64,000 nt of DNA from Candidatus Aenigmatarchaeota archaeon (lineage in GTDB: Archaea > Aenigmatarchaeota > Aenigmatarchaeia > CG10238-14 > SCSR01), in contig JAWCSL010000001.1 of assembly GCA_039090665.1 (NCBI GenBank), positions 1 through 64,000 of the forward strand, in the 5' to 3' direction. The notes under the pieces are model-generated. The model was not told where the DNA came from. It saw only the letters and a program-made list of their open reading frames with translations, and did no database searches. Positions 35,686-44,141 of this stretch are shown piece after piece. Position 1 is the first letter of the stretch; each line of letters begins with the position of its first letter. The translations under genes were made by a program, and so were the position numbers.

Positions 35686-35744
35686 TAAAATCTTAAAAAT
35701 TATTTTTGTTTTCATTTAGATATAATATAACAGGCTAGTAACAA

Positions 35745-35851
35745 GCTGGCGTGGATTAGCCTGGCTAAATCGCGGCGCTCATAGCATCTATGAGCTTTGA
35801 TAAAGGATGAAAGAAACGCCGAGATCGCGGGTTCAAATCCCGCCGCCAGCA
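35745..35851 (+). tRNA. tRNA-Met(CAT), probably elongator, with 32-nt intron at 37/38 (35784-35815)
   Basis: acceptor GCTGGCG/CGCCAGC; anticodon arm CGGCG-CTCATA^A-CGCCG; GGTTCAAATCC T-arm. Confidence 0.9.
35784..35815 (+). ncRNA. tRNA-Met intron carrying a box D'/C' guide for C34
   Basis: CTATGAGC pairs with GCTCATAG (35777-84); TTGA and ATGAAAG boxes; N+5 = C34. Confidence 0.75.
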
Positions 35852-35920: not shown

Positions 35921-37066
35921 GTGAAAGAACCTAAAACTAGAATAGGAATATGTGAATACCATTTGTGTAAAAAGAAAACAAAAGTTTTCTTGTGTAAGTA
36001 TTGTGGAAAGTATTTTTGCAAAAAACACATACAACCGAAACCTGTTTTAAGTTTGAGACAAGTTTCCACTGCTAAAGAACCTTTAAGAAGTAAGTTGGAA
36101 AAAATATGGAGAAGTGAAAAAGGACACCCTGATTCTAATTTTACACCAATATTCTGGAGAAGGTTTGAAAAAGAAGAGAAACTCAAACTAGAAATAATGT
36201 GGGACACATTAAACAAGTTAAAAGAATTGAAAAAATTGGAAAGAGTTGATCTTATGGAAACCAAATCAGTCAAAGAAACTCGTACACAAACAAACAGTGA
36301 TATTAAAATCAAAAATACTTTGACAGTCCTAACTTTAATAATTGTTTTCATTATTTTGGCTTTGTTTGTCATAAATTTACCCACAGGAAACCTTTCTGAA
36401 AATCATACGTTCATCTCAGAAAATATAATACAAACTACTTCCACCACATTAAAGATCACATTAGAAAAGGAAGAAAGTAAAAAGTACTTTGTAGATTTAA
36501 ATTTTTCTACCCCTTTCCCCAGGCTTAATAAAACTTTTTTAATCAATAACTTTTATTCCGTTTATATTAACGATTCTCTTTTGAAAATAATAGATCCAAA
36601 TTGTACCGACTTTTGTAACAAGAGCATAGAAGCTGTCAAAAAAGCATTTAAAATATGGGAAGAAGAAATCAAATTAATCGATTTCGAGTTTGTAGGAGTT
36701 GAAAAAAATCATACAATCTATGTCGAGATAACAGCAGAAATGCCTATTGATGTAGTAGAAAAAGAATTTGTTTCTTATGCTGTAGGTTATACTATACCTT
36801 ACGGCTACGAATGTGGAAACTATGTGTTTGTAAAGGGAGGGAAGATTTACCTTTCACCTAAGAAAGAACAACACTTACTCAAAATTGCCATGCACGAGAT
36901 AGGTCATATTTTGAATCTGGCTGATGTTGGGAACAAAGATTCTATAATGTGTAAGTGGAGTGAAGAAGAAATAGTCTCTGAAGAAGAGTTGAGAAAAAGT
37001 ATAAACCAGGAAATAAAAGAAACTTTGAAAATGATTGTCAAACCAGAGTATGATTGTGGAGTTTAA
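35921..37066 (+). CDS. AN1-like zinc finger + TM helix + matrixin-like metallopeptidase
   Basis: CKYCGKYFCKKH; hydrophobic span; HEIGHILNL and SIM Met-turn. Confidence 0.75.
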   Translation: MKEPKTRIGICEYHLCKKKTKVFLCKYCGKYFCKKHIQPKPVLSLRQVSTAKEPLRSKLEKIWRSEKGHPDSNFTPIFWRRFEKEEKLKLEIMWDTLNKLKELKKLERVDLMETKSVKETRTQTNSDIKIKNTLTVLTLIIVFIILALFVINLPTGNLSENHTFISENIIQTTSTTLKITLEKEESKKYFVDLNFSTPFPRLNKTFLINNFYSVYINDSLLKIIDPNCTDFCNKSIEAVKKAFKIWEEEIKLIDFEFVGVEKNHTIYVEITAEMPIDVVEKEFVSYAVGYTIPYGYECGNYVFVKGGKIYLSPKKEQHLLKIAMHEIGHILNLADVGNKDSIMCKWSEEEIVSEEELRKSINQEIKETLKMIVKPEYDCGV

Positions 37067-38703: not shown

Positions 38704-39603
38704 TACTGAGTTATATTATTTATTTGCTCATGGGTCTTGGCGTTGGGCTTTTGATCAAGTCAAACAAGACATGAGATGAAATAGCCTATTCTGACTCATG
38801 AGATATTGGCCTGAAGTGAAAGAGCTTCAGGTAGGTTGATTGGTGAAACCTAGAGGTAGGGCCCGCCAATTCTGGTTGATCCCGCCAGAGGCCACTGCTA
38901 TCCGGCTTCGACTAAGCCATGCGAGTCGAGAGGGGAAAGCCCTCGGCGCACTGCTCCGTAATACACAGTCAACCTACCCTTAGCTGGGGGATAATCCCGG
39001 GAAACTGGGGCTAATACCCCATAGGTGCTAGGTACTGGAAGGTCCTAGCGCCGAAAGCTCCGGCGGCTAAGGATGGGACTGTGGCCTATCAGCTTGTTGT
39101 GGAGGTAAAGGCTCCACAAGGCGATAACGGGTACGGGCTATGGAAGTAGGAGCCCGGAGATGGACTCTGAGACATGAGTCCAGGTACTACGGTACGCAGC
39201 AGGCGCGAAAACTTCTCAATGCTCGCAAGAGCGAAGAGGGAAGCCGGAGTGCCCTTGCTCTGCAAGGGCTTTTGCGGTCTGAAAACGGGACCGCGAATAA
39301 GGGGTGGGTAAGACGGGTGCCAGCCGCCGCGGTAATACCCGCGCCCCGAGTGGTGGCCACGATTATTGGGCCTAAAGCGTCCGTAGCCGGTCTGGTAAGT
39401 CCTCAGTGAAATCCTCTAGCAAACTAGAGGGCTTGCTGGGGATACTGCCAGACTTGAGACTGGGAGGGGGCAGGGGTACTCCCAGGGTAGGGGTGAAATC
39501 CTGTAATCCTGGGGGGACCACCTGTGGCGAAGGCGCCTGCCTGGAACAGGTCTGACGGTGAGGGACGAAAGCTAGGGGAGCGATCGGGATTAGATACCCC
39601 GGT

Positions 39604-39682
39604 ACACGAGGTTGGGTATCTTCTGATTTAAAGATGAAGAAAAATCCCAACTCAAGCTAGGATTTCCTAACTCGTGCGGGAA
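39604..39682 (+). ncRNA. 16S BHB intron 1 (after Ec U801) with K-loop and antisense elements
   Basis: CCCG/CGGG helix, GTA and AAA bulges; removal restores GATACCCCGGTAGTCC. Confidence 0.9.
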
Positions 39683-40082
39683 AGTCCTAGCCGTAAACGA
39701 TGCCCGCTTGGTGTTGCAAGCTTCTCGGGAGCTTGCAGTGCCGAAGCGTAGGTGTTAAGCGGGCCGCCTGGGGAGTACGCCCGCAAGGGTGAAACTTAAG
39801 GGAATTGGCGGGGGAGCACACAAGGGGTGGGCGTTGCGGTTCAATTGGATTCAACGCCGGAAATCTTACCAGGGCCGACGGCAGGATGAAGGTCAGTCTG
39901 AAGGGCTTACCAGACGAGCCGAGAGGTGGTGCATGGCCATCGTCAGCTCGTACCGTGAGGCGTGCGCTTAAGTGCGTTAACGAGCGAGACCCACACCCCA
40001 TGTTGCTAACTGCTTCTCCGGAAGCAGTGCACTCATGGGGGACCGCTGGCGATAAGCCAGAGGAAGGAGTGGGCGACGGTAG

Positions 40083-40170
40083 ACAGGTAAAAGGCTCAAG
40101 ACCGATTCATGTGAAAAAAAGATGAGCATGAATATCGCCCAGAGCCGTACATGTCTTTTACCTGACCGAA
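40083..40170 (+). ncRNA. 16S BHB intron 2 (after Ec 1197), H/ACA-like hairpin
   Basis: CGGT/ACCG helix, AGA and AAG bulges; removal restores GACGGTAGGTCCGTATG. Confidence 0.9.
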
Positions 40171-40451
40171 GTCCGTATGCCCCGAATGCCCTGGGCCACA
40201 CGCGACGCACAATGCGCGCCACAATGGGATGCGACCCCGAAAGGGGAAGCAAAGCCCCTAAAAGCGCGCTCAGTTCGGATCGAGGGCTGTAACTCGTCCT
40301 CGTGAAGCTGGAATCCCTAGTAAGCGAACGTCATCATCGTTCGCTGAATACGTCCCTGCTCCTTGCACACACTGCCCGTCAAGCCAATCGAGCGGAACTC
40401 CATCGAGGCTTGCGATGAGCAAGTCGAGTTGGAGTTCTGTGAGAGGGGCTA

Positions 40452-40557
40452 ATCTTGGGGGTCCAGAAAAAAATAATATGAAAGAATTGGCTTGACTCTG
40501 ATGTGATGATGAGATGGAGGTGAGTTGATTGCTTGTATGGACCTCCCAAGAGCCTAA
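40452..40557 (+). ncRNA. 16S intron 3 (between Ec A1492/A1493) containing a full box C/D sRNA
   Basis: GGGC/GCCT helix, TAA and AAA bulges; removal restores GGGGCTAAGTCG; C, D', C' and D boxes present. Confidence 0.9.
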
Positions 40558-40832
40558 AGTCGCCACAAGGTAGCCGTACGGGAACGTGCGGCTGGATCAC
40601 CTCCTTACGTGCAACCCTACCTCAGGCACCATAAACAACCCTACCTGAAAGAATTTTCCTTTTTATCAGTACCAAAGTAAAAAAAATTAAGCTCGAATCT
40701 TTACCATTATCCTCAAATTTTTCAATTCTTTTCTTAAACTGTTTTCAAAAAGCTTGTGTTAACTAAAAACTAAAATAAATGAGAGAAAAATAGCTACCGA
40801 GCTTATAAAATAATAAAAATTGGGAAACCATT

Positions 40833-43973: not shown

Positions 43974-44033
43974 GCGATGAGCTTTGTCTTTCTCTGCTGA
44001 CAAAAAAGATGAAGATGTGGACACCTTGTGAGC
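43974..44033 (+). ncRNA. candidate box C/D sRNA in the 23S leader (A)
   Basis: C ATGAGCT 43977, D' CTGA 43997, C' ATGAAGA 44009, D GTGA 44028; 12-13 nt spacers. Confidence 0.65.
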
Positions 44034-44080: not shown

Positions 44081-44141
44081 GGTTGATGATAACATTTATT
44101 CGCCTGAAAAAAGATGAAGAGCGAACTGTCTATTTGAAACC
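44081..44141 (+). ncRNA. box C/D sRNA in the 23S leader (B)
   Basis: GGTT/AACC terminal stem; C ATGATAA, D' CTGA, C' ATGAAGA, D TTGA; guides match 16S 39293-301 and 23S 47193-202. Confidence 0.82.

Follow-up and report, generated by a model that had tools for sequence, protein, structure and literature searches.

Can a tRNA intron of 32 nucleotides (nt) carry the address for modifying the wobble base of the very tRNA that it interrupts? The question is raised by an elongator tRNA-Met(CAU) gene with one intron, located at 35745..35851 on the plus strand of a 64,000-nt stretch of DNA from a Candidatus Aenigmatarchaeota archaeon (the window; positions 1 to 64,000 of contig JAWCSL010000001.1, here C1, assembly GCA_039090665.1). 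The genome comprises 620,606 bases in 15 contigs, with ~34% G+C, and is 90.6% complete. In Haloferax, 2'-O-methylation of C34 (Cm34) in the intron-containing tRNA-Met is reported to be guided by a stand-alone small RNA (sRNA) (PMC2584109; PMC4033218), and sR49 is predicted to serve the same position in Pyrococcus (PMC7994747), in keeping with what an earlier note on this DNA had said about separate sRNAs. Our analysis of the sequence suggests that in the window the guide lies inside the tRNA-Met intron itself and probably directs 2'-O-methylation of C34. We likewise think it likely that the intron represents a minimal, one-motif relative of the archaeal box C/D guide, built into the tRNA-Met precursor.

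A guide-like element facing C34

The intron occupies 35784..35815, the canonical 37/38 position, as judged from the sequence and the Rfam match described below; a boundary one base leftward is equally possible and would leave the mature tRNA identical. Within the intron, CTATGAGC (35788..35795) is the exact reverse complement of GCTCATAG (35777..35784), a target strand made up of G31, C32 to A37 and the first intron base, and the two are paired over 8 base pairs (bp) in the minimum free energy (MFE) fold. The earlier note had claimed that an 8-mer pairs with the anticodon loop plus the first intron base; this is borne out, and G31 takes part as well. Target and guide are linked by the hairpin loop CAT (35785..35787), the length and sequence of which vary in relatives (an unaligned connector of 0-13 nt over 100 rows). 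A single unpaired T (35796) separates the guide from a D'-like box, TTGA (35797..35800), which is followed by a 5-nt loop, TAAAG (35801..35805; sequence and length variable in relatives), and by a C'-like box, GATGA (35806..35810), the 7-nt form of which is AGGATGA (35804-10), with position 6 pairing with D' position 1. Together these boxes would form a kink-loop (K-loop). The bases AAGAA lie directly 3' of GATGA, and all of these elements are on the plus strand. G35792, the fifth base 5' of TTGA, has C35780, i.e. C34, as its partner (the N+5 register), as had been proposed; this nucleotide, the first of the anticodon CAT (35780..35782) in the cloverleaf parse, is the predicted 2'-O-methylation target. 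As to the boxes named in the earlier note, TTGA stands, but ATGAAAG does not, as relatives conserve GAUNA (here GATGA), and the AUGAAAG form alone is found in just 2 of the 26 Met rows of alignment A1 (see below).

The guide helix is contained in the MFE fold of the whole precursor (-44.7 kcal/mol, z = -3.71) as well as in that of the anticodon arm (-15.9 kcal/mol, z = -2.96), and in neither case was any of 200 shuffles as stable. As a chance control, we used 200,000 mononucleotide shuffles of the 32-nt intron. At least 7 Watson-Crick pairs over C34 were present in 2,209 of the 200,000, and 161 of those also had GA in the N+5 register. When the whole NNGA-loop-GATGA arrangement was added, just 1 of the 200,000 shuffles was left, and we conclude that the layout of guide and boxes in the tRNA-Met intron is not due to chance.

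Set beside the hallmarks of the box C/D family, the intron shows an internal D'/C' K-loop with tandem G-A pairs and the D'1:C'6 pair, although its boxes are off consensus, and a guide that abuts the D/D' box with the target opposite the fifth nucleotide. It contains neither a K-turn formed by terminal box C (RUGAUGA) and box D (CUGA) nor a 10-12 nt guide in a bipartite, pseudo-symmetric architecture, since its helix is 8 bp long and its motif single. A second (terminal C/D) box pair was found neither in the intron nor in exons or flanks, which together hold one NNGA...GAUGA motif only, so that the description in the earlier note of an unusually small, single K-loop guide was apt. The element is guide-like yet lacks the terminal C/D pair and the bipartite architecture, and is hence a variant rather than a member of the family.

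The layout follows the anticodon in other tRNAs and other genomes

All 38 tRNA-model matches of the genome were read for introns of the same plan. Four further introns share the order of spacer, box, loop, box and tail, and in each of them the guide matches its own anticodon loop with nucleotide 34 at N+5. These are the introns of tRNA-Lys(UUU) (contig C9, C9:45746-45857; guide CUAAAAGC, then U-UUGA-UUAAAAA-GAUGA), tRNA-Leu(CAA) (C12:17153-17268; guide UUGAGC, then U-UUGA-UUUCAA-GAUGA), tRNA-Trp(CCA) (C12:31978-32080; guide UGGAGC, then U-CGGA-UAAAA-GAUGA) and tRNA-Gln(UUG) (C12:7759-7871; guide CUAAAGC, then U-CAGA-UAAAAA-GAUGA). In the same reading of the genome's tRNA introns, the K-loop motif was absent from those of Ile(UAU) and Tyr(GUA).

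BLAST with the tRNA-Met gene returned matches in 54 of 60 related genomes, and 29 loci were extracted. Alignment A1 holds 26 Met, 2 Lys, 2 Gln, 1 Leu and 1 Trp rows; one locus (L011) was dropped as identical to another (L010), and one (L022) was left out by the E-value filter and is included in alignment A2. In A1, GA is invariant in both boxes, and the connecting loop and the loop of the K-loop are variable. The 26 tRNA-Met introns of the order keep the layout despite their varying connecting loop. In the guide helix, 91.7% of cells are paired and 6 of 8 pairs have changed on both sides, and D' position 1 forms a standard pair with C' position 6 in every row. These pairing values were reached by none of 500 shuffles, and sliding the partners by 1-3 columns reduced pairing to 26-44%. 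Some of the tRNA-Met loci (L008, L010, L026 and L033, of genomes G004, G003, G021 and G033) appear to be interrupted a second time, by a short insertion located between D arm and anticodon stem, as their BLAST spans cover query 28-107 (31-100 for L026) and extra bases precede the anticodon stem.

The covariance model R1 retrieves the five introns of the genome itself at 46.9-65.4 bits and adds three weaker matches, two with E ~0.002 and one with E 0.4. Of 60 genomes of the order, 59 have matches (E<=0.01; 2-8 per matching genome), as do 103 of a phylum-wide sample of 151 (E<=1e-4). By family, all 31 own-family genomes are matched (31/31); elsewhere the matches are fewer, usually one per genome. 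Alignment A2 brings together 100 cases, of which 33 are earlier loci and 67 were newly fetched, from the best 150 of 256 R1 matches; 80 loci were fetched in all, and 13 of the 80 were not included. In A2, 95.5% of cells are paired compared with 69.8% in shuffles, the covariation score is 0.669 compared with 0.211, and sliding the 3' partners by 1-3 columns leaves 28-49% paired. Two whole-structure measures of A2 do not beat the shuffles, namely pairs changed on both sides (reached by 18/500) and further pair types (reached by 398/500). For the guide helix alone, 92.7% of cells are paired over the 100 sequences, with both sides changed in 6 of 8 pairs; counted from position 31, the helix has 6 bp in 33 cases, 7 bp in 12 and 8 bp in 55. 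In all 100 cases a single base forms the spacer (T in 95, A in 3, C in 1 and G in 1), and nucleotide 34 pairs with N+5 in every one of the 100 members of this model-selected set. The D'-like box is TTGA in 74 cases, CTGA in 11, TCGA in 5, ATGA in 4, CGGA in 4 and CAGA in 2, and the D'1:C'6 pair, which is always standard and covaries, is UG in 69, CG in 16, UA in 10 and AU in 4.

The anticodons in A2 are CAU (38), CAA (25), UUG (15), UUU (10), UAA (7) and CCA (5). Judged by the alignment, the guide covaries with the anticodon across these six tRNA species, as a functional guide predicts. The edges of the helix behave alike: 5 of 99 distinct rows have A31 in place of G31 together with U in place of C in the guide, and the guide's 5' end covaries with the first intron base, so that the substrate would be the unspliced precursor. 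For most of these tRNAs, position 34 is a target named elsewhere. In Pyrococcus, four sRNAs are predicted for position 34 of Leu(CAA), Leu(UAA), Met and Trp, with sR50 being the Trp intron (PMC7994747), and a C/D guide for position 34 of Gln(UUG) is predicted or reported in Sulfolobus (PMC7668247). Position-34 C/D targeting thus has printed precedent for five of the six anticodons found here.

The comparison bears on the idea that the intron is a functionless remnant, i.e. a decayed full C/D intron or a copy of a spreading family, with its complementarity inherited or accidental. The K-loop and tail are common to introns of different tRNAs, and BLAST matches to query 49-101 occur in other tRNA genes, as spread by copying would produce. 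Yet the guide has been re-matched to the host anticodon across six anticodons, the box pair 1:6 covaries, the layout persists over the order and much of the phylum, and the shuffle test gave the arrangement once in 200,000. In the sequences of relatives, guide and boxes do not drift freely; a remnant is accordingly disfavoured, and we regard it as very improbable.

A pattern scan of genome contigs for the Met layout gave at least 120 matches and was swamped by chance bacterial ones, so that it gives no picture of how the layout is distributed. Among 80 of the matches listed, 5 were archaeal, and just one of these 5, from a Micrarchaeota metagenome-assembled genome (L124), was a real tRNA-Met intron with the layout. 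It reads UAUGAGU-U-AUGA, a small stem-loop and then GAUGA, and its A31 is matched by a U in the guide. The design therefore extends beyond the phylum Aenigmatarchaeota, to another DPANN phylum.

Identity of the interrupted tRNA

The window is archaeal, given the archaeal small-subunit (SSU) and large-subunit (LSU) rRNA genes found within it, and the public sequencing runs that carry the DNA of this genome are hot-spring DNA metagenomes. RF00005, the tRNA model of Rfam, scores 53.1 bits over 35745-35851 (+) and places an insertion of 34 positions behind CUCAU in the anticodon loop. ARAGORN in default mode, with introns off, did not call the gene; with introns allowed it proposed Ser(cga) i(37,32), which we ruled out because the variable loop is just 5 nt. 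The only sensible splice of 35745-35851 yields the anticodon loop CUCAUAA. In the manual cloverleaf parse (all on the plus strand), the 5' strand of the acceptor stem is 35745-51, the anticodon stem is 35773-77 / 35817-21, and the anticodon loop runs from C32 (35778) through U33, C34 (35780), A35 and U36 to A37 (35783) and, beyond the intron, A38 (35816).

Initiator tRNA is marked by A1:U72 and G29-31:C39-41. The tRNA at 35745-35851 instead has G1-C72, the anticodon stem CGGCG without a G29-31:C39-41 run, and a short variable loop, and is not initiator-like, whereas both marks are present in the genome's one remaining CAU tRNA (C11, ~1083-1200, minus). This initiator-like tRNA-Met (L042) is itself interrupted 5' of the D arm, with AGCGGGG occurring twice upstream. 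A CAU anticodon alone does not separate Met from Ile2, in which C34 would be converted to agmatidine and the guide reading would be misplaced; the earlier note had raised this possibility. TiaS_FLD (PF08489) had no match in the 90.6%-complete genome, where absence is unproven, but the control matched in 4 of 4 archaeal control genomes; a tRNA with the anticodon UAU (Ile) is present at C8:29712-29804, and the remaining CAU tRNA carries the initiator marks. Because TiaS was not found, tRNA-Ile(UAU) is present and the other CAU tRNA is initiator-like, an agmatidine-type tRNA-Ile2 identity for 35745-35851 appears unlikely, and we give next to no weight to the idea that the target has been misread in this way. 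These features identify the gene as that of an elongator tRNA-Met, neither initiator nor Ile2, with charging by methionine being predicted, and the AUA codon may be read without agmatidine in this genome. The tRNA-Ile(UAU) gene has a 23-nt intron without a K-loop, and the 5' part of its Rfam match forms no acceptor stem, so that a second interruption is likely.

Around the tRNA-Met gene, a minus-strand open reading frame (ORF) ends at 35715 and a plus-strand ORF begins at 35921; a 46-codon ORF on the opposite strand is mechanical. An A/T-rich, TATA-like stretch at 35716..35731 (+), 14-29 nt 5' of the tRNA, is a candidate archaeal promoter as read from the sequence.

Guide fold and splicing fold

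In a canonical bulge-helix-bulge (BHB) motif, two 3-nt bulges surround a 4-bp helix, and nucleotides 32-35 are paired with the four intron bases that precede the 3' bulge. In the window tRNA, the splice-site tail AAAG, as partner of 32-35, is followed by the 3' bulge A, A, A38 (35810..35816, +). Over the 100 cases of A2, the tail pairs with nucleotide 32 in 100, with 33 in 89, with 34 in 44 and with 35 in 73, and it follows the anticodon, being mostly UAAG for CAU, CAA and UAA, AAAG or GAAG for UUU and UUG, and GAAG for CCA. Since the tail pairs with 32-35 and changes with the anticodon, the alignment indicates that the intron has a BHB strand of its own, under selection and distinct from the guide.

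A relaxed BHB can be drawn for the tRNA-Met precursor, with the bulges U36 A37 G(i1) and A(i31) A(i32) A38 (i denoting intron positions), 2 of 4 pairs in the central helix (C32-G, U33-A) and the outer helix CAUC (i2-5)/GAUG (i23-26). The BHB-like fold has -7.4 to -10.2 kcal/mol compared with -12.7 to -13.7 for the guide fold and -15.9 for the full MFE fold. The guide helix buries the 5' splice site, and the C' box is shared with the outer BHB helix; in these models the two folds are mutually exclusive. From this we infer a possible switch in which the guide fold and its ribonucleoprotein (RNP) come first and the splice fold later.

In the unspliced transcript, CUAUGAGC would pair with G31-A37 and the first intron base, while UUGA and GAUGA, 5 nt apart, would fold into a K-loop with tandem sheared G-A pairs, a U-U pair and a closing U-G pair. 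L7Ae would bind this K-loop, Nop5-fibrillarin would then dock, and C34, opposite the fifth guide nucleotide, would receive the 2'-O-methyl group. The guide helix would subsequently open, so that 32-35 become free to pair with AAAG of the 3' tail (bulge AA|A) and CAUC (i2-5) can pair with GAUG (i23-26), and the resulting relaxed BHB motif would be cut by the splicing endonuclease. Because the 5' splice site stays buried as long as the guide helix persists, this opening must come before cleavage, and methylation would thus precede splicing. Protein binding, methylation and the order of events are predictions from the sequence throughout.

Fibrillarin (289.8 bits, 232 aa) and Nop5 (215.3 bits, 358 aa) are encoded by adjacent genes on C3. 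A strict pattern for full-length C/D sRNAs gave 2 candidates over the genome, coding sequence included, a weak hint that free-standing guides may be rare in this genome. A weak second fibrillarin-family match (26.8 bits) lies at C12:32384-32518 (minus, L002) in a 224-codon frame, ~300 bases from tRNA-Trp.

The competition between the two folds (-12.7 to -15.9 compared with -7.4 to -10.2 kcal/mol) would equally suit an intron that folds, protects or times its precursor without any methylation. Here, an L7Ae-binding K-loop together with the helix would mask the anticodon, for instance by hiding the anticodon loop from other enzymes or by holding back splicing until the protein leaves. Such a role would accord with the conserved helix and K-loop, and the sections of PMC1635284 on single-motif complexes describe them as non-specific in vitro. 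Masking alone, however, has no need for the exact one-base spacer (100/100) that sets nucleotide 34 at N+5, and it would not single out tRNAs for which C/D guidance of position 34 is reported or predicted in other archaea (PMC7994747, PMC7668247). Nor does it account for the retention of fibrillarin and Nop5 in a 0.62-Mb genome in which a simple pattern finds just 2 canonical C/D candidates. We therefore consider masking without methylation unlikely.

A guide that acts in cis is not the sole way in which C34 could be reached, since the excised, perhaps circularised, intron or another precursor could methylate a second pre-tRNA-Met in trans. In-vitro data favour action in trans for the Haloferax tRNA-Trp intron as far as PMC2584109 and PMC11408192 report them, half-RNA complexes form on Nop5 dimers in the account of PMC6239191, and the 3-nt connecting loop may be sterically tight within an RNP. 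The intramolecular hairpin, on the other hand, is the MFE fold and would win over a partner of identical sequence in trans, and action in trans only seems to us distinctly improbable. It is in any case a variant of guided C34 methylation and not an alternative function.

Evidence that weighs against guided methylation

Several observations speak against the tRNA-Met intron as a guide for C34. The duplex has 8 bp here and 6-8 bp in relatives, compared with the usual guides of 10-12 nt. The boxes are off consensus, with UUGA in place of CUGA and with G, A or U before GAUGA instead of the conserved U. There is a single K-turn-type motif and no terminal C/D pair, and the part of PMC1635284 that deals with hemi-complexes reports that a single-motif complex is weakly active in vitro and non-site-specific, both motifs being needed for specificity. 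The '100/100' counts are partly circular and overstate the case, since the members of A2 were selected with a model that favours this very structure and were limited to the top-scoring listed matches. That R1, which was built mostly on CAU, retrieves five other anticodons with matched guides is evidence of a non-circular kind. As regards specificity, one Nop5 dimer might hold two K-loops, each belonging to a different precursor.

The remaining point concerns L7Ae, for which TIGR03677 returned nothing over the cut-off in this 90.6%-complete assembly. The same model finds one gene over the cut-off in each of 39/39 relatives, including all 7 of the same genus, and an assembly gap is the likeliest explanation. 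A PF01248 match was considered as L7Ae and rejected. The protein has 86 aa from the first ATG, or 94 aa from an upstream TTG, and its gene lies just 3' of an RNA-polymerase subunit gene and 5' of a putative KH/NusA-like gene; size and neighbours fit a small L30e-type protein.

Further K-loop-like motifs in the genome

A sixth K-loop intron is found in tRNA-Cys(GCA) (C13:23315-23418, L039), which carries TTGA-TAAAA-GATGAG. Its guide, UUGGUCUU, pairs with the last three intron bases and A38-A42, i.e. across the 3' splice junction, and places C39 at N+5; position 39 is the methylated position in Haloferax tRNA-Trp. The element is kept with few changes in 6 of 30 genomes (E<=1e-8), and one change from G-U to G-C fits the pairing. 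The 42-nt intron of tRNA-Tyr(GUA) (C11:20207-20320, L040) starts with CUGA, continues with GGUGA and CAGA, and lacks a stretch complementary to its anticodon loop; its boxes may be arranged differently.

The SSU rRNA gene (38869-40605) contains an insertion at 39606-39690, after GGATTAGATACCCCGGTA, with CTGA-TTTAAA-GATGAAG at 39623. AGATACCC (39591-98), in the exon directly 5' of the insertion, has its complement in the 12 bases 5' of this motif, a plan of a guide beside its own target like that of the tRNA introns. The insertion is a weak R1 match (E 0.002), and chance matches of 8-mers are numerous once G-U pairs are admitted. The earlier note had equated the boxes of the tRNA-Met intron with those of guides in rRNA introns; this holds loosely at best, as the SSU-intron K-loop is CTGA...GATGAAG. 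In the rRNA spacer between tRNA-Ala and the LSU gene, two further K-loop-like motifs of the form CTGA-loop-GATGAAG occur (43997-44013 and 44104-44118), with ambiguous candidate targets. A loose K-loop pattern run over the genome gave 237 matches compared with 107-145 in shuffles and was dropped, GATGAA being common in coding sequence.

Implications and comparison with known systems

Taken further, the data would be consistent with a natural single-K-loop C/D enzyme, a proposal that we make tentatively and hold to be possible rather than probable. The 30-60-nt introns of Met, Leu-CAA, Leu-UAA, Lys-UUU, Gln-UUG and Trp would carry tethered 6-8-nt guides that largely replace free guide RNAs, and the anticodon loop would toggle between guide helix and BHB, which would fix the order of steps. 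If this is true, the two-motif architecture that is deemed obligatory for site-specific methylation would be dispensable in vivo, with specificity arising from tethering or from two precursors on one Nop5 dimer. The introns would gain a selective purpose by carrying the address for the wobble modification of their own tRNA, which would suit genomes too small for many separate guide genes. The element would also be the smallest natural RNA that aims fibrillarin, with a bearing on why box C/D RNPs need two motifs. A 107-nt transcript with three proteins would make a simple system for studying cis and trans action and the order of modification and splicing. Recognition of the motif would, in addition, improve tRNA and guide annotation in DPANN, as standard finders missed or mis-called this gene.

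According to two reviews, an intron-borne guide for the host tRNA itself occurs in tRNA-Trp only (PMC4090602, 'a unique example'; PMC11408192). In a literature search, beyond which most subscription journals and supplements lay, we found no description of single-motif self-guides in several tRNA introns apart from the Trp case and that of Nanoarchaeum equitans Met. One of the two closest known parallels is the euryarchaeal pre-tRNA-Trp guide (Haloferax volcanii; Pyrococcus sR50), which as described also sits in a 37/38 intron, is antisense to its own anticodon region, has C34 at N+5 and is used before splicing (PMC7994747, PMC2584109, PMC4090602, PMC11408192). The tRNA-Met intron likewise places its guide within a 37/38 intron and antisense to its own anticodon loop. 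It does not contain a full C, D', C', D sRNA with two guides, whereas the Trp intron is reported as exactly that, its guides addressing C34 and U39. The Trp intron has a reported median of 65 nt and reaches 103 nt in H. volcanii, compared with the 32 nt of the tRNA-Met intron, in which one D'/C' motif and one 8-nt guide are joined to the target by a 3-nt loop. The design described here also occurs in tRNA-Met and five more tRNA species of the lineage.

With sR-tMet of Haloferax and sR49 of Pyrococcus the intron shares the target nucleotide and an intron-containing precursor as substrate (according to the relevant parts of PMC2584109 and PMC4033218), but those guides are separate, trans-acting genes, whereas here the guide lies within the substrate. 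The closest published case comes from Nanoarchaeum equitans, where the 66-nt tRNA-Met intron is reported to yield a stable RNA with a single box D and a single box C (PMC3491384), and by this description the element is in the same tRNA, at the same intron position and in a DPANN archaeon. The N. equitans box C has a T-to-G change, and AGGAUGA here departs from RUGAUGA by U-to-G at the second position. The N. equitans intron differs in being twice as long and in having a 6-bp GC hairpin, and no target is named for it in the portion of PMC3491384 that describes it.

Single-motif guides have also been described outside natural tRNA introns. Crystal structures reported in PMC6239191 show two separate half RNAs, together with L7Ae, Nop5 and fibrillarin, assembled on a Nop5 dimer, and a 36-nt mouse box C/D-like RNA (tiSNORD) is reported to guide methylation (bioRxiv 10.64898/2026.07.28.740266). 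Engineered hemi- or half-mer RNPs and mouse tiSNORDs resemble the tRNA-Met intron in combining one K-turn-type motif with one guide. As far as they are described, tiSNORDs are eukaryotic, poorly conserved and trans-acting, and hemi-complexes are engineered and no longer site-specific in vitro (PMC1635284), whereas the motif in the tRNA-Met intron is natural, conserved and attached to its target.

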